47,802 nt of DNA. Source: a virus (Duplodnaviria; Heunggongvirae; Uroviricota; Caudoviricetes). The stretch's first letter is position 1. The number at the start of each line of letters is the position of its first letter. The translations under genes and the position numbers were made by a program. The stretch lies in IMG/VR virus record IMGVR_UViG_2541047899_000009. One strand, 5' to 3'. Shown one piece after another: positions 1-11,329 of this stretch. The notes under the pieces were generated by a model. The model was given only the letters and a program-made list of their open reading frames with translations. It ran no database searches and had not been told where the DNA came from.

Positions 1-1284
1 TTACAGACTTCTTGAAGGTTGCGCAGCTGTTACAACACGCGGTTGATCTTCCGCGGCATCTTCCAGTGCACTTAAATCACGGTCTTTCACTTCTGGCATT
101 TTCAGCGCAGAGATTAAACCAATCACTGAATATGCCATGATCATAATGGCGATCGGATACCAGGATTCCGTCATGGTGCAGAAAATACCCGCCAGGATAG
201 GACCAAAACCGGAAGCGATAAGACCACCAATTTCTTTAGAAATGGCCATCCGGGTAAAGCGGTTTTTACAGCCGAACATTTCTGCCATGGTAATGTTTTC
301 CAGAGCAAATAATCCCAGCACCGCACAGTTATGAATCACAATCAGTGCCACCATAATGGTGCTCGGGGCATAGCTTTTATCTACGATGATAGAAAGCATT
401 GGCCATGCCAGCACAATCGCGGAGGTATTCATAATAATATACGGGATCCGGCGACCAATTTTATCGGATAACCAACCAAGGAACGGAATGGTCATAAAGC
501 CGAGAATCGAACTGATCATCAATGCATCTGTTGGAATTGCTTTGTTAAACAATAACGTCTGCACTAAATAGCCTGCAAGGAAAGTCTGAATTAAACCGGA
601 GTTACCAGCCTGACCAAAACGCAGCCCTGTTGCCAGCCAGAAGGATTTGCTCTGGAACATGCTACCAGCAGGTGCAGGTTTTGCTGTCGGTTGGTTGCTG
701 TCGTTAACCTTCTCAAAGACCGGGCTTTCTTTCAGATTCATACGCAACCAGATAGCAAAGACCATCACGACAACGCTCGCCAGGAACGGTATACGCCATC
801 CCCACGCAAGCAGTTCCTCTTTACTGAGAATGAAGAACATAAAGGCCCAGATTGCCGTTGCGCTCAAGGTTCCGCAGTTAGTCCCCATAGCCACAAATGA
901 GGAGATAATTCCGCGCTTACCTTTTGGCGCATATTCCGCCAGCATCGTACCGGCACCGGAAATTTCCGCACCTGCACCCAATCCCTGAATAATACGCAGC
1001 GTCACCAGCAAGATGGGTGCAAAAACACCAATCTGTGCATAGGTCGGTAACACACCAATTAAGGTGGTACAGATCCCCATCATGGTGATGGTAATAAAGA
1101 GTACTTTTTTACGCCCGATTCTGTCGCCCATTTTGCCGAAAATAAATGCTCCGACAATACGCGCCACATAACCTGCACCGTAGGTTCCCATTGCCAGAAT
1201 TAACGCCATTGCCGTTGATGATTCAGGAAAAAATATTTCATGAAACACTAACGCTGCGCCGAGCGAATATAACTGGAAATCCAT
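1..1284 (-). CDS. ydfJ: MFS-family inner-membrane metabolite transporter (YdfJ-like)
   Basis: 427-aa ORF with multiple hydrophobic helices and an MFS-type loop motif (GKMGDRIGRKK); stop codon at window positions 1-3. Symbol from recalled similarity to E. coli YdfJ. Confidence 0.8.
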   Translation of the reverse strand: MDFQLYSLGAALVFHEIFFPESSTAMALILAMGTYGAGYVARIVGAFIFGKMGDRIGRKKVLFITITMMGICTTLIGVLPTYAQIGVFAPILLVTLRIIQGLGAGAEISGAGTMLAEYAPKGKRGIISSFVAMGTNCGTLSATAIWAFMFFILSKEELLAWGWRIPFLASVVVMVFAIWLRMNLKESPVFEKVNDSNQPTAKPAPAGSMFQSKSFWLATGLRFGQAGNSGLIQTFLAGYLVQTLLFNKAIPTDALMISSILGFMTIPFLGWLSDKIGRRIPYIIMNTSAIVLAWPMLSIIVDKSYAPSTIMVALIVIHNCAVLGLFALENITMAEMFGCKNRFTRMAISKEIGGLIASGFGPILAGIFCTMTESWYPIAIMIMAYSVIGLISALKMPEVKDRDLSALEDAAEDQPRVVTAAQPSRSL

Positions 1285-2069
1285 AATTCACAGGTGTTTT
1301 TTCCCATCCAGTGGTTTCCTTGGCGTTTTCTAGGTTTTTTCAGATAGTTGCATTTTTTAAAAAGCATCCTAAGTTCGATCTCAGTGTCTATCTGGGGCCT
1401 ATTTCTGTCCCATATATGCCCCAAAAAAACTCCTCAACAGATAAGTAGTTTTTTCATGGAGTTACGCGTAAAATCAATAACGGCTGGAAATCATTCAATA
1501 CTCGCACTATCGAAAAATTTACCAGCCAACCGCAGCACGTTCTTGCATAAGGCGTGTCTGCGGTTTTTCAACTATTCAGATACATCACTCCCATCACATT
1601 CATTCCTCCGCATCAAAGGCATATAGGCTATATCACCTTGATATTTTTCTTCTTCAGATAAAAACTGTTATCTATGTATACTTTTAAACCCAATCCGTGT
1701 AGAGTCTCTGCATAAGATAGTTTGCAGTTGCCACTTCAGCTTGCGCCATAAACCGCCTGATTTTTGCCGCCATCTGTTAGCATTCCTGTATACCTGAAAC
1801 GACAATGTTTATCTACGAACTTTAAGAACACCCAGGATAAAAATTGTCAACTATATCATATATAACACATTACTAATTCGAGGCTATATGAACAGCATAC
1901 TGATAATCACTTCGCTCCTTATCATATTCAGCATTTTTAGTCATGCTCTAATAAAATTAGGGATTGGCATATCCAATAACCCAGACAAAACCGATGTATA
2001 AGTCAACATATCCTGAATCAGACATACAATATCGCAATGAAAATCAATAATATTTTAAGGAATATATTC

Positions 2070-2303
2070 ATGAAATCAAAAGACACCCTAAAGTGGTTCC
2101 CTGCGCAGCTTCCTGAAGTCAGAATTATCCTAGGGGATGCTGTAGTGGAAGTAGCAAAACAGGGAAGACCTATCAATACCAGAACATTGCTTGATTACAT
2201 TGAAGGAAACATAAAGAAAAAATCATGGCTGGATAACAAAGAATTATTACAAACAGCGATATCAGTTCTTAAAGACAACCAAAATTTAAATGGTAAAATG
2301 TAA
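2070..2303 (+). CDS. ydfK: YdfK/YnaE-family small prophage protein
   Basis: 77-aa product from the internal Met (MKSKDTLKWFPAQLPEV...) of ORF 2037..2303; sits next to pin as in Qin/Rac-type prophages. Confidence 0.6.
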   Translation: MKSKDTLKWFPAQLPEVRIILGDAVVEVAKQGRPINTRTLLDYIEGNIKKKSWLDNKELLQTAISVLKDNQNLNGKM

Positions 2304-2619
2304 TATAATAAACTTACTTTTTTATCATTTTTCCACTTTAACAACATTTTGCTCCACTTTTCCACGACCAAACAACTTGAAATCTGGTTAAAATAACACG
2401 CAACACTATTCTTCTTCCTTGAGTCCGCCCGGAACTCGAAAAACAAACCGAGTTAAAGCCATTTTTCACAAAATCGATTTTGGGTCTCACCAAAATTACG
2501 GGGTTGCATACGCATTCGTTTATTTTCGAACGTGTACATACAAACATGCACAAAAATAATCAAAATTATTTTCTGAGATGCATTATGATATGAACACCAA
2601 TTTCGTATAGAGTCTCACT

Positions 2620-3210
2620 ATGTCTCGAATTTTTGCTTACTGTCGGATATCAACGCTGGATCAGACCACCGAAAATCAACGCCGGGAAATCGAAAGTGCA
2701 GGTTTTAAAATCAAACCTCAGCAAATAATCGAAGAACACATTAGCGGCTCAGCAGCAACCAGTGAGCGTCCTGGTTTTAACCGGTTGCTTGCTCGCCTGA
2801 AATGTGGTGATCAATTGATTGTGACAAAACTGGATCGCCTTGGTTGTAATGCAATGGATATCAGGAAAACAGTGGAACAACTGACCGAAACAGGTATCAG
2901 AGTGCATTGCTTAGCATTGGGGGGCATTGACCTGACCAGTCCAACAGGAAAAATGATGATGCAAGTAATTTCAGCAGTCGCTGAATTTGAACGAGACCTT
3001 TTACTTGAACGCACTCATTCCGGGATAGTAAGAGCCCGGGGCGCAGGGAAACGTTTTGGTCGACCACCTGTGTTAAATGAAGAACAGAAACAGGTGGTAT
3101 TCGAACGGATTAAGTCAGGTGTAAGTATAAGTGCCATTGCCCGGGAATTCAAAACCTCGCGGCAAACCATTTTAAGAGCCAAAGCAAAACTTCAGACACC
3201 TGACATATAA
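2620..3210 (+). CDS. pinQ: Pin-type DNA invertase (serine recombinase, Gin/Hin/Cin/Pin family)
   Basis: 196 aa; N-terminal resolvase catalytic region (YCRISTLDQ with Ser nucleophile), C-terminal HTH ([19 protein letters not shown]); adjacent to tail fibre genes. Confidence 0.9.
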
Positions 3211-3437
3211 AAAATAATCTCGGTGTGAGATGCCTTACGTCTTCCAAGCCCCCTTCCTTGCCGTAAATGGAAAGATACATCTAATTATAGAATTTATATG
3301 TTTTACCCTACGGCAGTGCTAGCCATTCAATATCCTGTGCAGTTGACGTATCAACACGGTTCAGCAACACCCGATACTTCTTCAAGGCTTCCCGCAACGA
3401 GGTTTCTTCCTCCGTTGCATATACAGCTCACCTTTTT

Positions 3438-3731
3438 TCACCCACGATTAACCAACAGCCAGACCAGCAGACACGCCACCACCGGCACAGCAAAATCCAT
3501 CAGGCTTGCCACATCCCACGCACGCGGATCAAAACCGCCCCACCACGGCATATTCATACGCTTGCCATGCCCGAACATTTCAATCCAGCGATATTCTGCC
3601 TGGGTATGTTCACGCGCAATGAAGAACGTACAACCAGCTATCGCCCCGTAAGCCCAGTTTCCGGTAAAAAGACCAACCAGTACCTGCGCAGCCACAGCAC
3701 AAAGTGCATGAAGGAAAGGTGTTATATCCAT
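3438..3731 (-). CDS. hypothetical small membrane protein
   Basis: 97-aa ORF with two hydrophobic segments (LHALCAVAAQVLVGLF, FAVPVVACLLVWLLV), directly downstream of the tail fibre genes on the same strand. Confidence 0.45.
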   Translation of the reverse strand: MDITPFLHALCAVAAQVLVGLFTGNWAYGAIAGCTFFIAREHTQAEYRWIEMFGHGKRMNMPWWGGFDPRAWDVASLMDFAVPVVACLLVWLLVNRG

Positions 3732-3741
3732 TACGCCTCCT

Positions 3742-4446
3742 TTATCCGATATCGCTTCGGGAAACGGATAACAACTTTAATTCTGACTCAAGTTCATCAA
3801 CTCTTTCAGTCAGCTTCTGGATATGGTGAATCAGTGGAACAACCAGACGTTCGTACATTACACCTTCGGCAACAAGGCCATTGCTGGAAATGGTTTCCGG
3901 TGCATCATCTTCGTTGGCTGGTCGCCAGTGAACAAACTGAGGGGCAATTTCTCCAACTTCCTCGGCAATCAATCCATAGAATCCCCAGTCACGCCTGTCA
4001 TTTTCGCATTGCGACCTGTACCACACAGGGCGCATCCTGAAAATGAGATCGGCGTGCTCTGAATCTATCGTCTCTACTGAATGTTTATAGCGGATAGACG
4101 ATGTTGACCGCAGCACAGACGAAATTGCAGGGTCAGGATTAAGATAAAGATTTGCCGCCGCTGTAGTTGTGCCCAATCCCCATAAATAAAACGCTTCACG
4201 GCCAGTCAGCGGGTAAAAATCTCCGCCATAACGACCACTTTCCAGATCGTTCACTTCCACTTTGTTTTTCAGCTTATTATCAACTTCAGTTTTTGTGTAT
4301 CTGGTGCTGATATCCTGCTTTGCACTGGCCATATCAGTCTGAAGCGTTGATACTTTTCCGTTAATAGAGGAAATATCTTCCTTTGCTTTACTAACATCTC
4401 CCTTCAGCGTGGTGATGTCTCCCGGAATTACTGTTGATGTAGCCAT
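3742..4446 (-). CDS. tail-fibre-like protein with C-terminal intramolecular chaperone (peptidase S74-like) domain
   Basis: 234 aa; N-terminal coiled-coil-like segment; C-terminal region (SSIRYKHSVETIDSEHADLIF...GLIAEEVGEIAPQFV...GLVAEGVMYERLVVPLIHHIQKLTERVDELESELK) matches the autoproteolytic chaperone pattern of tail fibres and endosialidases. Confidence 0.6.
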   Translation of the reverse strand: MATSTVIPGDITTLKGDVSKAKEDISSINGKVSTLQTDMASAKQDISTRYTKTEVDNKLKNKVEVNDLESGRYGGDFYPLTGREAFYLWGLGTTTAAANLYLNPDPAISSVLRSTSSIRYKHSVETIDSEHADLIFRMRPVWYRSQCENDRRDWGFYGLIAEEVGEIAPQFVHWRPANEDDAPETISSNGLVAEGVMYERLVVPLIHHIQKLTERVDELESELKLLSVSRSDIG

Positions 4447-4455
4447 TTCTCTACC

Positions 4456-4737
4456 TCACATCCAGCCACGAAGTTGATGCTCAACAGCAACCGCGTATTC
4501 ATCGAATAATGACGATATTTGCGTATCCTTAATGATGCGCACGTTTACAAAATATCCATCTTCCTTAACACATACCGGTTCGCCATCTTCAGTCAGCTCT
4601 CCGGTTTCTTTGTACACGTTACCTATCACATCAATCAGAATATCATCCTGCATCGACTCGTCATTATAATAGCCAATACTTCCCATAAAGGCCGAAAAGT
4701 CGGCCCTGTCGGCAAATTTGAGTGTTAAATCTTTCAT
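4456..4737 (-). CDS. hypothetical protein downstream of side tail fibre
   Basis: 93-aa ORF whose start overlaps the stf stop; acidic, no recognisable motif. Confidence 0.45.
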   Translation of the reverse strand: MKDLTLKFADRADFSAFMGSIGYYNDESMQDDILIDVIGNVYKETGELTEDGEPVCVKEDGYFVNVRIIKDTQISSLFDEYAVAVEHQLRGWM

Positions 4738-7148
4738 TAGATTGACTCCCCCATCTGAGCATCAGTCAATGCCTTGTGCCAAATACGCAGATTTCGAACG
4801 TGTCCAAATAGGTGACGGTTGCCGGATGATGATTGACCACCAATATTAATGAAGCCTCCTGTATATTTGTGTTTTTTATAAGGAGAAACTACCTTAGCAC
4901 CAATATTACCGTTAACCACAACACACAATTCTCGACTTTCTGTGAATCTAAAGCCGATAATGCTTTTTCTCTCTGGTCGTTCTATAACGCTTTTATATTC
5001 TATTTTAGTGCCTTTACCATTTGTAATGATTGCGCGTGCTCCCAAAGATGTATACCCCAAATACATATAACTTTCATCTGCAATTTCAGTTGTATCTCCC
5101 GTAGTGGAAATATTAAGAATACGTGCGCTACCTTCTTTGTTTGGCGATTCATCCCAATTGGTATTAACTTCTGCTAATGAACTAATAGCGGGATTGCACC
5201 AATTTAGAGAAATGGGGACCGTTACAATATCGCTGGCGCGTGTTACAGGGGATGCGCCTGTTATAATAAACGATGAAGCGCACGCCCCACCTTCAACTTG
5301 AGGGGTCGCAATATAAATATAATCATCCGCGCCAGTGCCCACTCCTTTTGCCGGGGCATACTGAACCATTCCACCTATCATATTTTCTGTATCAAGTGCC
5401 TTAATTGTCGCCTCAAAAAAGATCCATTTGCTTGCTTCATCTTTAACAGCCCTTGCAGTAATGCGATTAGCGGCACCACCCGTCTTATCAATAGATAAAT
5501 CTGTCGTATTTAAGTAAGCGTCACCTAAGAATGTGTAGGTAGAACCATCATAGTTTTCAAATCGTAATCGGCATCTTAAATTTGGAGTGCCACTTTGCAC
5601 CCTGCATGATATGGTTACATACTTTTCTCCGCCTGTTACATCAAAACCTTTACTGCCGGAAACGGTTACTATGTTAATCGCTGAAATTTGCCCTACCATT
5701 TCTGGTTTTAATGTAAATTTTGCGTACTGGAATCCGAAATCATCTACACCTGATGCACTTAAGATCATATTTGACGACTTGTTCCATTTAGTCGGATTTG
5801 TTGAATTGATTAGCAGGTTAGTTCTTTGCCCCTCAATAAGCAGGCCATCACGTTCAAATCGTGGCTCGTCAATGGCAGCCTCTGTCAGCACACCAGATTT
5901 ATTAATGTAAGTTGCTTTCGATGCGCGTTTAAACTTTACAATCTTGTAGCCAGGCATTGTTATTTCATCGTCGCCAATAACAATTTTTTTATATGATGGC
6001 GAAAAGCCCGTAATCATATCCAGTGAATCATTAAACGGTATCCACACATCGGGCAACGGCTGCAAAACTTGTTTATACGGCTCCGCTGCCTGGCTTGCAT
6101 ACTCTCTGGCTGCGTCTTCACTTGCTTTAGCTGCTGTCTGGCTTGCTGCCGATGCTTGCGCCGAGTTCGCCGCCGCAGTCTCGCTCGCCTTTGCGTTGGT
6201 TTCACTGGTTTTTGCTGCTTTTTGACTGTTAGCTGATGCAGTGGCAGAAGCAGCCGCCGCGCTTGCAGAACTGGCTGCGGCACTCTCGCTTTGGGCCGCT
6301 GCATCCTGACTGCTTTTCGCCGCAGTTTCACTGGCTTTGGCATTCGTTTCGCTGGTCTTCGCTGCCGTCTGGCTGGACTTTGCGTTAGTTTCACTCGTCT
6401 TCGCAGCTTTCTGGCTGTTAGCCGCAGCAGTTGCTGATCCAGCTGCTGAAGTCGCAGAACCGGCTGCCGCGCTCTCGCTTTGGGCTGCTGCAACCTGGCT
6501 GTTTTTTGCCGCAGTTTCACTGGCTTTGGCATTCGTTTCGCTGGTTTTCGCTGCCGTCTGGCTGGACTTTGCGTTGGTTTCGCTCGTCTTTGCGGCTGTC
6601 TCGCTATTTTTCGCGTTGGTTTCTGATTTTTTGGCTGCTGTCGCGGAGTTTGCCGATGCAGTCTTTGAGGTCGCTGCCGCCTGTGCACTATTAGCTGCAT
6701 TCGTTTCTGAGGTTTTCGCCGCGTTCTTTGATGATGCCGCTGCAGTTTCGGATTTCTTTGCCGCCGCTGCGCTCTGAGAGGCGGCTTCGGCGTTGCGTGC
6801 CACTTCTTCCACCATTGCCTCAAAACGACGCAATGCCTCCGGCATGACATCATCTTCCGTCATGGCACCGAGAAAATCATTCAGCGTACCTGGTCTGGAG
6901 CCTTCATAGACGGTAATGGTCCCGGCATGTGAAGGCGGAAAACCTTCAACCAGCAGGGTGACGCTGTACTGGCCATACTCAACATCCATGCTGTAACGTC
7001 CGGCTTCATCCGGATTTTCAGAAGCCACCGTGTTCACCAGTACCGTGGTGCTGTTACGCTTTGCCTTCAGTTGAATAGTGCAGTTCTGTATTGGTTTTCC
7101 CGCACCATCTTTCAGCACACCTGAGATTTTTACTGCTGCCATATCCAC
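4737..7148 (-). CDS. stf: side tail fibre protein (lambda Stf-like N-terminus, Ala/Ser/Thr-rich repeat shaft, lectin/jelly-roll-like C-terminal domain)
   Basis: 803 aa; N-terminus (AVKISGVLKDGAGKPIQNCTIQLKAKRNSTTVLVNTV...YSMDVEYGQYSVTLLVEGFPPSHAGTITVYE) closely matches recalled lambda Stf; long (AAKTSETNAK)n-type repeats follow. Confidence 0.9.
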   Translation of the reverse strand: MDMAAVKISGVLKDGAGKPIQNCTIQLKAKRNSTTVLVNTVASENPDEAGRYSMDVEYGQYSVTLLVEGFPPSHAGTITVYEGSRPGTLNDFLGAMTEDDVMPEALRRFEAMVEEVARNAEAASQSAAAAKKSETAAASSKNAAKTSETNAANSAQAAATSKTASANSATAAKKSETNAKNSETAAKTSETNAKSSQTAAKTSETNAKASETAAKNSQVAAAQSESAAAGSATSAAGSATAAANSQKAAKTSETNAKSSQTAAKTSETNAKASETAAKSSQDAAAQSESAAASSASAAAASATASANSQKAAKTSETNAKASETAAANSAQASAASQTAAKASEDAAREYASQAAEPYKQVLQPLPDVWIPFNDSLDMITGFSPSYKKIVIGDDEITMPGYKIVKFKRASKATYINKSGVLTEAAIDEPRFERDGLLIEGQRTNLLINSTNPTKWNKSSNMILSASGVDDFGFQYAKFTLKPEMVGQISAINIVTVSGSKGFDVTGGEKYVTISCRVQSGTPNLRCRLRFENYDGSTYTFLGDAYLNTTDLSIDKTGGAANRITARAVKDEASKWIFFEATIKALDTENMIGGMVQYAPAKGVGTGADDYIYIATPQVEGGACASSFIITGASPVTRASDIVTVPISLNWCNPAISSLAEVNTNWDESPNKEGSARILNISTTGDTTEIADESYMYLGYTSLGARAIITNGKGTKIEYKSVIERPERKSIIGFRFTESRELCVVVNGNIGAKVVSPYKKHKYTGGFINIGGQSSSGNRHLFGHVRNLRIWHKALTDAQMGESI
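6120..6720. repeat. tandem direct repeats (about 189-bp unit, 2 full copies plus partial copies) inside stf
   Basis: Near-identical stretches beginning around 6322 and 6511 (gcagtttcactggctttggcattcgtttcgctggt...); they encode the repeated AAKTSETNAKSSQTAAKTSETNAKASETAAK blocks. Confidence 0.8.
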
Positions 7149-7153
7149 TCCAC

Positions 7154-7180
7154 AAAAAAGCCCGCCTGAACCGGCGGGCT
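7154..7180 (-). terminator. rho-independent terminator downstream of lom
   Basis: GC-rich hairpin agcccgcc-tgaacc-ggcgggct followed on the minus strand by a T6 tract. Confidence 0.6.
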
Positions 7181-7206
7181 GTCATAACACTGTGTTACCT
7201 GGCTAA

Positions 7207-7806
7207 TCAGAATTTATAACCGACACCCACGATGAAACCGTCAGTGCGCCAGTCACCACTGCCGGAGCCTTCATAAGCAATATCAATGGCCACGGATTCG
7301 GTCGGGTTAAACTGCACGCCAGCTCCCCACGCCAGAGACGTGTTGCTGTGGCGACCGTCATCACTTCCGGTCAGCACATCGTGCGTTTTCCCCTTATTGT
7401 CAGTTACGCGGAGATAATCCCCGGAAAAAGTCGACACACGGCTGTAAGCCATACCCGCCATCGCATACGCGCTGAACCATTCATTCACGCGCACAGACGG
7501 CCCCACCATCACGCTGAACCAGCGGTTACGCACGGAATCTTCATGCCAGCGGGTATTGCTGTAACGGGTAAGCTGGCGATTCTTGTCTCCTGCATAGCTG
7601 AATGACGTCACCAGCCCCAGTGTGTCCGTAAACTCATAACGGTATTTCACGTTAACCCCGTTAAGATCATCGCTGCCGGGAACGTTCGTCGAGGCATGAA
7701 GATACCCCGCGCTCAGCGTGGACTGATGTTCAGATGCCCATGCAGGCGCACCGGATACGGACAGACAGATGGCTGCGGACAAAATGGCTGCACAAACTTT
7801 ACGCAT
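7207..7806 (-). CDS. lom: Lom (Ail/Lom-family outer-membrane beta-barrel protein)
   Basis: 199 aa with signal peptide ([24 protein letters not shown]), alternating beta-strand pattern and C-terminal aromatic residue (GYKF); lies between J and stf as in lambda. Confidence 0.9.
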
Positions 7807-7830
7807 AATTACCTCTCGCTTTTCTGCAAT

Positions 7831-7854
7831 AAAAAAGGCGCCATTTCTGGCGCC
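7831..7854 (-). terminator. rho-independent terminator downstream of J
   Basis: Hairpin ggcgcc-atttct-ggcgcc followed on the minus strand by a T-tract (plus-strand aaaaaa). Confidence 0.55.
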
Positions 7855-7873
7855 CGTATATGGGTTATAAAAT

Positions 7874-10800
7874 TCAGCTGATACTGATGCCTGCGGTGGC
7901 TTTCTTCATCACCACAACCAGCAAATCGCTGATACTTGCTGTGGGATACCAGTCATTTACCAGCCATGCTGACACCGAAAACTCCAGCGTCATGTGACCG
8001 TGACCGGCAGGCATATCAATAACGCCACTGTAAATCAGCGTATTATCCAGCGCGGTACGGTTATAAATTTCAGCACCGTTTTTCCGCACTATCAGACGGC
8101 ATGAGGAGTAAATATCAGTATGCTCTCTCTCATGTTTAGCGCCGCTGAATGCCACCGCCGGAATAACAATCTGCCGGTCAAACGGCTGATCGTCATAAAC
8201 CCTGACGGTAATGGTCCCTGATGGCCACCGCTCCGGTGCACGGGAGTCCCGGGGGAAAGCTTTGCCCACTGTTTTAACGAGATCGCCTTCAATCTGGTTC
8301 GCGGACAGTTTTCCCAGAACCCGACAGTTCTCGTTAATCGTGACGTTGTTGAGCGTCCCGGAGTTCGCATTCACGTTACCGCTGATATCGGCATTTTTCG
8401 CCGTCAGCCGCCCATCCGGTGTCAGGGAAAATGCCGGAGGATTACCGCCGCTGGTAATGGTGGGGGCCGTCAGGCGTTTCAGGAACACGTCGTTCATGAA
8501 TATCTGGTTGCCCTGCGCCACAAACATCGGCGTTTCATTCCCGTTTGCCGGGTCAATAAACGCGATACGATTGGCGGCAACCAGAAACTGACTCAGTTTG
8601 CCTTCCTCTGTATCCTCCATACTGAGGCCAATACCCGCGACATAATGTTTGCCGTCTTTGGTCTGCTCAATTTTGACGCCCCACATGGCATTCCACTTAT
8701 CACTGGCGTCCTTCCACTCTTTCGAAAACTCCTCCAGTCTGCTGGCGTTATCCTCCGTCAGCTCGACTTTTTCCAGCAGCTCCTTGCCGAGATGGGATTC
8801 GGTTATCTGGCCTTTGAAAAAATCCAGGTAACCTTCCGCATCATCGCTCGCCCGACCAACAGCCTCCACGAATGCCGATTTGCCGACGGTGTTCACACTG
8901 CGGATATAAAAGTAATAATCACGACCCGGTTTGATATTGATACTGGCGGCTATCCAGTACAGCCCCGTGCCAAGGTAGCGGGCTGTGGTTTCAACCTGCC
9001 TGATATCCGCAATCCGTTTTTCCGAGAACCAGAACTCAAACTGTACCGTCGGGTCATAAACCGCAAGATGTGGCGTGGCGGTTATCTGAAAATAGCCCGG
9101 TGTCAGCTCAATCCGAGACGGCGCTGCCGGTGCGGCAATCCGGAACGATACCGATGCCGGATCGCCCTGCAGCCCCCACGCATTTACCGCCCGGACCGTC
9201 AGCATGTAACGCCCCAGCGCCAGTTGCGTGAAGCGGTATGTGGTTTCCGTCGTCCGGGCCGTGCTGACCAGCCGCTCACTGCCGTCATCCGCTGCCACGG
9301 TCAGGCGAAGCAGGAAGCTCACGCCCTTCACCACCTTCGGCGTGTCCCAGCGGGCCAGCACCTGATATTCCCCGCTGTCTGCGGTGACTTCGGCAGTCAG
9401 GTGCTGCACCGCTGGCGGCGTGACACCATTCACCGTGCCGCTCTGGTCGCCGTCAAAGTGCGCCCCGTTATCCACGATGGCCTCTTTCTCCGGTACATGC
9501 TGCACGGCAGTGATGGCATACGTGCCGTCGTCGTTCTCACGGATACTCACGCAGCGGAACAGGCGCTGGCGCAGCGTCGGCAACTTCAGCCCCCACACGC
9601 TGTATTCAGCAACGCCGTCAGGAACACGGCTCACTTTCACCTTCACGCCGTCGGTGACGGACTGGACCTCCACGCTGACCGGATTACCCTGCCCGTCAAC
9701 CAGGCTTATCAGCGTGGTGCCGGAGGATGGCAGCGTGATTTCACGGTCGAGCGTCAGCGTCCGGGTCTGGCTTTTCACCGCCAGCACGCGACCACCGATG
9801 CTGATACCGGCATAGTCATCATCGCAGATTTCAATAACATCGCCCGGCACATGGCGAAGCCCTTCTGCGCCCACGCTGAAATCCACGGTCTGCGTTTCCA
9901 GCAGTTCCGTTTTAATCAGCCACAGCCCGGCTCGGTGTGCCTGCCCCCGACTGGTACAACCAAAGGCATCCATCTTCGTGACATTACGACCGTAACGGGC
10001 AATGGCCTGCGTATCTTCAACAAGCTCTGTCGCCGTCTCCCAGCCGTTATCCGGGTCAATCCAGTTCACCTCAACGGCATTATGGCGGTCCTTCAGGGCG
10101 CTGAAGCTGTAGCGGAACGGCGCGCCATCATCCGGCATCACCACATTACTGCGGTTATAGGTCCACACCTTATCCGACGGTCGGTCCTGCACGAACGTCA
10201 GCGTCTGCCCGTTCCATACCGGCATACAGCGCATCGCCGAGCAGAAATCACTGAGCACATCCCACGCCTTGCGCTGTGTGGTCAGGTAAGCGTTACAGGT
10301 GATGCGCGGCTCCGTGCCGCCAAAGCCGTCCGGCACCGACTGGTCGCAATTCTGGCCGATGACATACAGCGCCCATTTATCCACATCCGCCGCACCAAGA
10401 CGTTTCCCCATGCCGTAGCGCGGATGGGTCAGCATATCCCACAGACACCAGGCCATGTTGTTGCTGTATGCCGGTTTTAACGTTCCGTCCCAGATACCGC
10501 TGTATTGCCGCGTCTGCGGGTTATAGTTCGACGGCACCTGCAGAATGCGCCCGCGAAGATGATAATTACGGCTCACCTGCTGGCTGCCGAACTGCTCCGA
10601 GTCCACCTGCACGCCAACCAGTGCCGTGTTCGGGTAGCACTGTTTCACATCGATGATTTCGGTGTATGACGACCAGAGCGTTTTGTTCTGCAGTTGGTCT
10701 GTGGTGCTGTCCGGCGTCATCCTGCGCATCCGGATATTGAACGGGCGCGGCGGCAGGTTACCCACCACCACCGAGGCCAGATACTGTGAGGTGGTTTTGC

Positions 10801-11269
10801 CTTTAATGGTGATGTCTTTTTCCGTCACCCAGCCACCGTTACGTTGTATCTGAACCAGCAGGCGGACTTCCGACGGATTCCTGTCCCCCTTTGAGGTGGT
10901 TTCCACCAGTGCCTGCACGCCGAAGGTAAAACGCAGTCGGTCAATGTTTGCCGACGTGATGGTCCGGGTGATCGGCGTGTCGTATTTCACTTCCGTACCC
11001 AGCACCGTCTCGGAGCCGGAGGATTCAAATCCCTCCGGCGGTGTTTGCTCCTGCTCACCGGCCCGGAACACCACCGTGACGCCGGAGATGTTGGTATTCC
11101 CCTCAATGTCCAGCACTGGCGTACTGTTCAGCAGCACGCTTTTTAATCCATCTACCGGACCTTCAACCGGCCCTTCGCTGATGGCATCGATCACACTCAG
11201 CAACTGCGTGGACTTCAGGTTGTCCTTCGCTTCGCGCGGAGTATGCCCCTTACTGCTGCCTTTACCCAT
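7874..11269 (-). CDS. J: tail tip host-specificity protein J
   Basis: N-terminus [34 protein letters not shown] matches recalled lambda J nearly residue for residue and length is about 1131 aa. The track ORF extends to 11314 but homology supports the internal Met. Confidence 0.95.
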
Positions 11270-11329
11270 TCCTAACGCTCCATAAACGACAAAACCGCCC
11301 GGAGGCGGTTTCACATAAAACGTTTTTCA

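Follow-up and report, generated by a model that had tools for sequence, protein, structure and literature searches.

Why would a lambdoid prophage carry, as a gene of its own, a 234-amino-acid (aa) protein of which half is an S74-type chaperone? The question is raised by an open reading frame (ORF) on the minus strand of the virus record IMGVR_UViG_2541047899_000009 (Caudoviricetes), the whole 47,802-nucleotide (nt) stretch of which is referred to here as the window. A first-pass annotation, made from the sequence alone, had placed a 234-aa ORF with an S74-type C-terminal half at positions 3742-4446; it lies exactly there, with the S74 domain at aa 116-234. Described at that stage as a stand-alone protein, it is instead one subunit of a three-gene fibre module that also encodes a large side tail fibre protein of 803 aa and a protein of 93 aa. 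Our analyses suggest that the ORF probably encodes a functional, very short trimeric fibre subunit, hereafter the mini-fibre, which would be the third gene of a portable side/lateral tail fibre module and would dock on the large fibre. Among the roles put forward earlier, that of a minimal fibre-like appendage is the one favoured by the evidence, and the mini-fibre can best be placed, as a new and minimal member, in a known class of secondary chaperone-bearing lateral-fibre subunits.

Architecture of the 234-aa protein

The C-terminal half of the protein is recognized as an S74 domain by several independent features. Residues 116-172 align with positions 1-57 of the 58-position Pfam profile Peptidase_S74 (PF13884) at 27.2 bits, above the curated cut-off of 22, and the similarity proposed from the sequence pattern is therefore borne out by profile search. 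In addition, aa 1-227 match the C-terminal positions 1147-1384 of PHROG 3299, a fibre family of ~1385 positions (E 2e-140), and the chaperone part has a sequence match to the C-terminus of DT57C LtfA (8hqz_d). The residues predicted to be catalytic, Ser116 and Lys121, do not vary in either of two homologue alignments (13 and 36 sequences), and in the crystallised MyRF ICA domain (7dc3 chain) their counterpart is the A-D-L-R-A-K (Ala-x4-Lys) site. An AlphaFold2 (AF2) monomer model, built from an alignment of 36 sequences, is confident over aa 120-232, with a predicted local distance difference test score (pLDDT) of 73-94 across aa 120-230 and a C-terminal helix at 198-232. The best Protein Data Bank (PDB) matches of this model in Foldseek were MyRF ICA (7dc3, E 1e-5) and the phage chaperones 3gud (probability 0.97) and 3gw6. 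MyRF ICA, GA-1 gp12 (3gud), and the K1F endosialidase (3gw6) resemble the mini-fibre chaperone in fold, in opening the domain with a Ser-x4-Lys pair, and in having a helix at its C-terminal end, although identity in the Foldseek alignments is only 11-26%; the two phage chaperones follow long spikes or fibres, whereas MyRF ICA follows a transcription factor. Taken together, the Pfam score, the invariant Ser/Lys pair, and the predicted fold make the S74 assignment sound.

The predicted scissile bond lies between Thr115 and Ser116, and cleavage there would yield fragments of 12.4 and 13.8 kDa. The very short mature fibre that had been foreseen after self-cleavage is thus also what we predict, at 115 aa and 12.4 kDa per chain. 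Short proteins of 183-242 aa that end in the same type of chaperone module (...TT.SAAN...RSTSS.RYK...) are also present in unrelated metagenomic lineages, suggesting that small S74 proteins are a recurring class.

In the mini-fibre, the chaperone sits at the C-terminal end, after a heptad stalk and a knob that resemble parts of fibres. About 100 aa of coiled-coil-like sequence had been proposed to precede the chaperone; this holds for ~50 aa, a heptad coiled coil at aa 10-51, but not for aa 52-115, which are ~60 aa of non-helical sequence. The heptads keep I/V/I/V/M/I at one core position and L/A/I/L/A at the other, AF2 predicts aa 10-47 as one long helix (pLDDT about 80-89), and the stalk shows a weak match to the coiled coil of the P22 tail-needle gp26 (4lin). 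Among homologues, the VDNKLK motif lies 33, 40, 47, 54, or 75 residues from Met1, so that differences are always multiples of 7, as would be the behaviour of a coiled-coil shaft that is bound to keep its register. Tandem DNA repeats that could be the source of such changes in heptad number were not detected inside the mini-fibre gene. The length from YTKTEVDNKL to Ser116, by contrast, is fixed at 61 or 65 residues.

The knob has homologues in the single-chain lambdoid Stf proteins P0228 and P0230 and in other long fibres, where it corresponds to the ~60 residues directly ahead of the cleavage site. When 1.84 billion representatives were searched exhaustively, 3583 matched at E <= 1e-3, and the best 150 of these were mostly proteins of 300-1300 aa matched at their C-termini, from query residue ~45-93 onward; the closest were lambdoid Stf proteins that share the phage_tail_N start of the 803-aa protein in the window. 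Comparison with full-length fibres bearing the same C-terminal domain, as the first-pass annotation had advised, is informative here. P0228 (735 aa) and P0230 (958 aa) share the phage_tail_N anchor and the Ala-rich shaft with the 803-aa fibre, and their last ~180 aa, comprising knob and chaperone, are 57-61% identical to mini-fibre aa ~45-234; P0230 terminates in ...ELESELKLLSTSRSDIG, the same ...ELESELKLLS.SRSDIG end as the mini-fibre. In these Stf proteins, knob and chaperone form the covalent end of the fibre, whereas here they belong to a separate polypeptide with an N-terminal adaptor and a coiled coil, and another domain terminates the large fibre. The mini-fibre therefore bears the tip and chaperone that terminate Stf covalently in sister prophages.

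In contrast to these shared C-terminal parts, the N-terminus of the mini-fibre is its own. When 80 viral contigs were recovered through the 93-aa gene, 77 of them had the downstream gene, and all 77 products start with MA[TI]STVIP.DI.., a motif that is also kept in T1-like phages. Behind this constant segment, two types of body occur, one of ~234 aa (~28 loci) and the other of ~346 aa (~45 loci, partial genes counted). DNA homology between the window and HannyBb, which has a 343-aa allele, extends through the 93-aa gene, ends at window position 4387 (after codon 20), and resumes at 3732, past the stop codon. The longer type also ends in S74 (52.8 bits in the HannyBb allele), yet its ~200 residues before the cleavage serine are unrelated to the 234-aa protein, and a PDB sequence search with this allele type returned a match only to the chaperone part of S16 gp37 (6f45). 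The suggestion of an exchange cassette therefore survives in part: the block from codon 21 to the stop is swapped between alleles of 234 aa and 346 aa, but the swap substitutes one allele of an expressed gene for another and does not draw on a silent store of fibre C-termini.

A three-gene module on different virion anchors

The order of large fibre, 93-aa, and mini-fibre genes is alike in IdasGreatGrand, HannyBb, the Drexlerviridae KarlJaspers and swan01, and two metagenomic contigs, thus covering two named phage families and one unclassified contig of ~61 kb. In the loci examined, the mini-fibre gene was never apart from the 93-aa gene and the C-terminal part of the large fibre gene. In the T1-like phage KarlJaspers (Bas06), the trio is annotated as a 651-aa "lateral tail fiber protein," a hypothetical protein of 92 aa, and a "putative lateral tail fiber chaperone" of 225 aa, which are 41% (over aa 265-803), 52%, and ~60% identical to the large fibre, the 93-aa protein, and the mini-fibre of the window, respectively. 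At its N-terminus, the large fibre has an anchor that differs between families, phage_tail_N being present here and absent from KarlJaspers. As the anchors differ while the rest is alike, the shared unit consists of the large-fibre shaft, junction, and distal domain, the 93-aa protein, and the mini-fibre, carried on different virion anchors. This module moves between temperate lambdoid and virulent T1-like coliphages.

Within the window, the three genes are tightly packed. The stop codon of the large fibre gene overlaps with the start of the 93-aa gene, just as that of the 93-aa gene overlaps with the GAGG Shine-Dalgarno sequence ahead of the mini-fibre ATG; no consensus sigma-70 promoter-like or intrinsic-terminator-like site was found on the coding (minus) strand between the three genes. 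The mini-fibre gene is translationally coupled within the operon.

The gene is also under purifying selection and is no remnant. Relative to the IdasGreatGrand orthologue, the ratio of nonsynonymous to synonymous substitution rates (dN/dS) is 0.17 overall, with 0.23 for aa 1-65, 0.12 for aa 66-115, and 0.18 for aa 116-234; relative to KarlJaspers, dS is saturated and dN is 0.29. The mini-fibre protein is 92-97% identical in the plaque-forming lambdoid phages PhiR49_1, IdasGreatGrand, and PhiR55_1, and 57-62% identical over >90% of its length in >40 Drexlerviridae, while a tblastn search of the phage collection with the 234-aa protein found no T5-like phage at E <= 1e-5. Among complete E. coli genomes, window positions 3300-4800 (1.5 kb) were at least 80% covered in 720 of 5426, placing the module in roughly one-eighth of them.

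The large fibre shows a different pattern of constancy and change. Its N-terminus contains a phage_tail_N domain (aa 5-134) and matches a tail-fibre chain of PDB 9e7m (E 8e-49), and a GTA_spike_fiber domain (NCBIfam) spans aa 437-638. Column conservation, computed over 52 distinct sequences, is 0.92-0.99 at aa 304-443, falls sharply to 0.65 at aa 444, and stays at 0.46-0.77 through aa 763, after which the final 40 residues are fairly conserved again. The stretch at aa 344-443 is the best conserved between lambdoid and T1-like large fibres, and the switch at residue 444 marks the recombination boundary of the distal domain. This distal domain is probably glycan-binding and lectin-like; its KarlJaspers homologue has weak matches to Laminin_G_3 and CBM_4_9, both under the Pfam cut-offs. 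Both mini-fibre alleles are paired with diverse large-fibre distal domains. The distal domain therefore varies independently of the mini-fibre allele, giving two independently varying parts, as would be expected of a fibre that binds with two specificities. A 189-nt tandem repeat (2.3 copies, 83% matches; window 6171-6605) also lies in the Ala/Ser/Thr-rich shaft of the large fibre and is likely a route to shaft-length variation.

The third member of the module, the 93-aa protein, is acidic (isoelectric point 4.2) and nearly always 91-93 aa in length, and is possibly an adaptor or assembly factor.

Proposed function and alternative explanations

From these results and published S74 biology, we infer trimerisation, autocleavage, presence in the virion, a docking site, and receptor binding for the mini-fibre, and propose the following mechanism. 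The S74 domains of three chains would associate and act in cis as an intramolecular chaperone that registers and folds the knob (~60 aa) and the heptad coiled coil. Ser116 and Lys121 would then cut each chain at the predicted bond; the 13.8-kDa chaperone fragment would leave, and the mature remainder would be a ~37-kDa trimer of three 12.4-kDa chains of stalk and knob. The first ~20 constant residues may plug this trimer onto the large fibre, most likely at the junction at aa ~344-443, whose invariance makes it the obvious candidate for receiving a constant N-terminus. Docking could be direct or perhaps via the 93-aa protein. The resulting side fibre would have two separately exchangeable host-binding parts, namely the lectin-like end of the large fibre and the body of the mini-fibre.

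Lateral fibres of small siphoviruses may be built from a single polypeptide or from more than one, with conservation confined to their extreme N-terminus (PMC8594841), and there are precedents for a second, chaperone-bearing subunit. In phage DT57C, the N-terminal ~45 aa of LtfB attach it to LtfA, and an S74 domain is present in each of the two (PMC4728585; PMC10713586). LtfB of DT57C and DT571/2, which forms a branched L-shaped fibre with LtfA, resembles the mini-fibre in being encoded by a separate gene beside the main fibre gene, with which the mini-fibre gene is co-oriented, and in its proposed attachment by a short conserved N-terminus, its own C-terminal autocleaving S74 chaperone, and its exchangeable receptor-binding body (PMC4728585; PMC10713586). 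By contrast, LtfA ends in S74 while the 803-aa fibre is without it, and an extra 93-aa gene lies between the two fibre genes here. LtfB is also several hundred residues long, compared with the 115 aa per chain that the mini-fibre would leave. Similarly, in several BASEL phages, proximal fibres with a lectin-like (galectin-like) end bear distal fibres that carry a chaperone (PMC11990801). The lateral fibres of IrisVonRoten (Gp24 on Gp22/23) and AnnaHegner (Gp10 on Gp9), whose distal parts are T-shaped, are two-protein fibres, as proposed here, with a distal subunit that combines a T5-like binding domain and an intramolecular chaperone; unlike the mini-fibre, this subunit is large and has two receptor-binding domains (PMC11990801). 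The likeness of these distal fibres to the mini-fibre in sequence is shown for S74 alone. The literature on lambdoid and T1-like phages yielded general statements and these precedents, and no description of this mini-fibre was found in it.

Several points weigh against a mini-fibre docked on the large fibre. The candidate docking site on the large fibre is read from conservation patterns only, and cleavage, trimerisation, and virion incorporation are predictions for this protein and for its close homologues alike. With ~55 aa per chain, the knob would be a small receptor-binding domain, and AF2 monomer confidence over aa 61-114 is low (pLDDT <50). The 93-aa protein is modelled with a pLDDT of 86, yet fold searches match just uncharacterised phage proteins. 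The virion proteome of swan01, which carries a homologue, lists five abundant proteins and the product of neither fibre gene, but is too shallow to inform. Finally, the BASEL annotation of the KarlJaspers homologue as a chaperone points to a different role.

The role implied by that annotation is that of a trans-acting chaperone, in which the S74 protein folds the 803-aa fibre and is then discarded without becoming a virion component. Consistent with this, the large fibre is without S74, no intact tfa gene follows it, and the three genes always travel together. This role is hard to square, however, with the protein's own fibre parts ahead of an invariant Ser/Lys cleavage pair, with a stalk that keeps its heptad register across length variants, and with a knob that is also the tip of single-chain Stf. 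Moreover, in the other allele the same N-terminus is followed by ~200 aa of a different sequence ahead of the cleavage site, as would be expected of a receptor-binding part, and the large fibre terminates in a domain that is globular and lectin-like, in contrast to the intertwined beta-structure whose folding is ascribed to S74 chaperones (endoNF and T5 pb1 work). We therefore regard this explanation as distinctly unlikely. A related possibility, that S74 acts in trans or both in cis and in trans, with the protein serving as a detachable assembly factor that templates trimerisation of the 803-aa fibre via its constant N-terminus and the 93-aa protein, appears very unlikely; if true, trans action would make this the first S74 chaperone working on a separate polypeptide.

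If the protein is instead a genuine short fibre, it might be docked elsewhere, for example on a J-type tail tip or on the 93-aa protein only. J-like tail tips are present in both the lambdoid and the T1-like siphoviruses (annotations; BASEL text), and the constant N-terminus proves a constant partner without telling which partner this is. Yet the gene does not separate from the large-fibre C-terminal part and the 93-aa gene, and the large fibre swaps its virion anchor between families while keeping a near-invariant 100-aa junction, as a branch point would, so that an appendage independent of the large fibre seems unlikely to us. The first-pass annotation had also raised a remnant, and a decaying 3' fragment of Stf, or an unexpressed store of fibre C-termini for recombination or inversion, would fit the mosaic region with its adjoining tfa remnant and Pin invertase as well as the occurrence of the same knob and chaperone at the ends of long Stf proteins. 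This explanation is hard to reconcile with the low dN/dS, with an ATG and Shine-Dalgarno sequence of the gene's own and its coupling in the operon, with a dedicated N-terminus absent from long fibres, and with conservation in virulent phages that have compact genomes; the gene is retained in plaque-forming phages of two families, and no inverted repeats delimit an invertible segment. A remnant or silent cassette is highly improbable.

The choice of O-antigen or surface types that a siphovirus can approach lies with its side/lateral tail fibres. With a mini-fibre docked on the large fibre, the module would be a compact means of adding a second, separately swappable binding part, made up of a constant 20-residue plug, a heptad stalk of adjustable length, a very small knob, and a chaperone that removes itself. 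Should the docking model hold, the plug and the large-fibre junction would form a natural plug-in interface for host-range engineering, and the mature chain, with its 115 residues, would serve as a handy small model of chaperone-assisted fibre folding. Current labels, including "hypothetical protein," "tail fiber domain-containing protein," and "putative lateral tail fiber chaperone," miss the predicted mini-fibre nature of these proteins.

Features and genomic setting of the locus

Table 1. Positions of the fibre module, its predicted parts, and neighbouring genes in the window.
Feature	Position	Strand	Basis or remark
Mini-fibre gene, 234 aa, 26.2-kDa precursor	3742-4446	-	ATG-started ORF; Pfam S74; PHROG 3299
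Codons 1-20 (MATSTVIPGDITTLKGDVSK), constant N-terminal segment, proposed docking peptide	4387-4446	-	conserved start across loci
Predicted coiled-coil stalk, aa 10-51, six heptads D-[IVM]-x-x-[LAI]-x-x	4294-4419	-	clean a/d register
YTKTEVDNKL shaft motif and distal knob of ~55 aa, aa 52-115, would remain on mature fibre	4102-4293	-	homology to Stf tips
Codons 116-121 (S-S-I-R-Y-K), predicted catalytic Ser116 (4099-4101) and Lys121 (4084-4086)	4084-4101	-	invariant; Pfam positions 1 and 6
S74 intramolecular chaperone, aa 116-234	3745-4101	-	Pfam PF13884; fold matches 7dc3, 3gud, 3gw6
93-aa acidic protein	4456-4737	-	PHROG 1361; between large fibre and mini-fibre genes
Large side tail fibre protein, 803 aa, without S74 domain	4737-7148	-	phage_tail_N aa 5-134; PHROG 1419 full length
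Constant junction segment, large-fibre aa 344-443, candidate mini-fibre docking site	5820-6119	-	conservation 0.92-0.99
Variable distal domain, large-fibre aa 444-763	4860-5819	-	conservation 0.46-0.77
J	7874-11314	-	upstream of lom
lom	7207-7806	-	between J and large fibre gene
97-aa ORF, hydrophobic segments at both ends	3438-3731	-	PHROG 1443; directly downstream of mini-fibre
tfa (tail fibre assembly) gene remnant	3308-3418	-	RefSeq annotation of 99.9% identical locus; context, outside module
Pin-family DNA invertase pinQ	2620-3210	+	Resolvase and HTH_7 domains; pinQ annotation; context, outside module

The window represents an E. coli chromosome that carries a lambdoid prophage at the Qin position, and a 99.9% identical locus is present in strain Ecol_316 (NZ_CP018957.1), bordered by ydfJ (insertion-cut), ynfT, ydfK, and pinQ. 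The ydfJ transporter gene occupies window 1-1284 (minus strand), with its 5' end truncated by the prophage, and is a pseudogene in the matching RefSeq locus. The tfa stub is labelled in RefSeq as [quoted passage not shown] and, together with pinQ, seems to remain from an earlier Stf-Tfa-invertase arrangement, since displaced by the three-gene module. An inverted-repeat search of positions 1300-7900 returned only repeats of 14-22 nt with 73-88% complementarity, none of them sensibly bracketing the mini-fibre gene. An invertase-switched fibre cassette, of the type of the Mu G segment, P1 C segment, or e14, was considered and rejected, as inverted crossover sites are lacking and the gene has its own start and N-terminus.

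The 93-aa and 234-aa ORFs share a reading frame in the window, separated by TGA and 9 nt, and do so likewise in swan01 and in two further loci (L085 and L086). Stop-codon read-through fusing the two ORFs was rejected as a conserved mechanism because the true ATG in KarlJaspers is out of frame; the shared frame is probably a coincidence of coupling spacing. Downstream of the mini-fibre gene, the 97-aa gene is common in lambda-like phages without an S74 gene and is absent from the T1-like module, and therefore constitutes a unit separate from the mini-fibre.

Upstream, a strong terminator-like hairpin (8 pairs, 7 of them G-C, followed by a T-run; window 7159-7180, minus strand) separates lom from the large fibre gene, which makes transcription of the fibre module a question. 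In the Ecol_316 locus (L001 13445-15696), lom is interrupted by ISEc10, an element of the IS21 family, and the large fibre gene carries a pseudogene label, indicating that the mini-fibre gene persists also in prophages with an already damaged fibre module.

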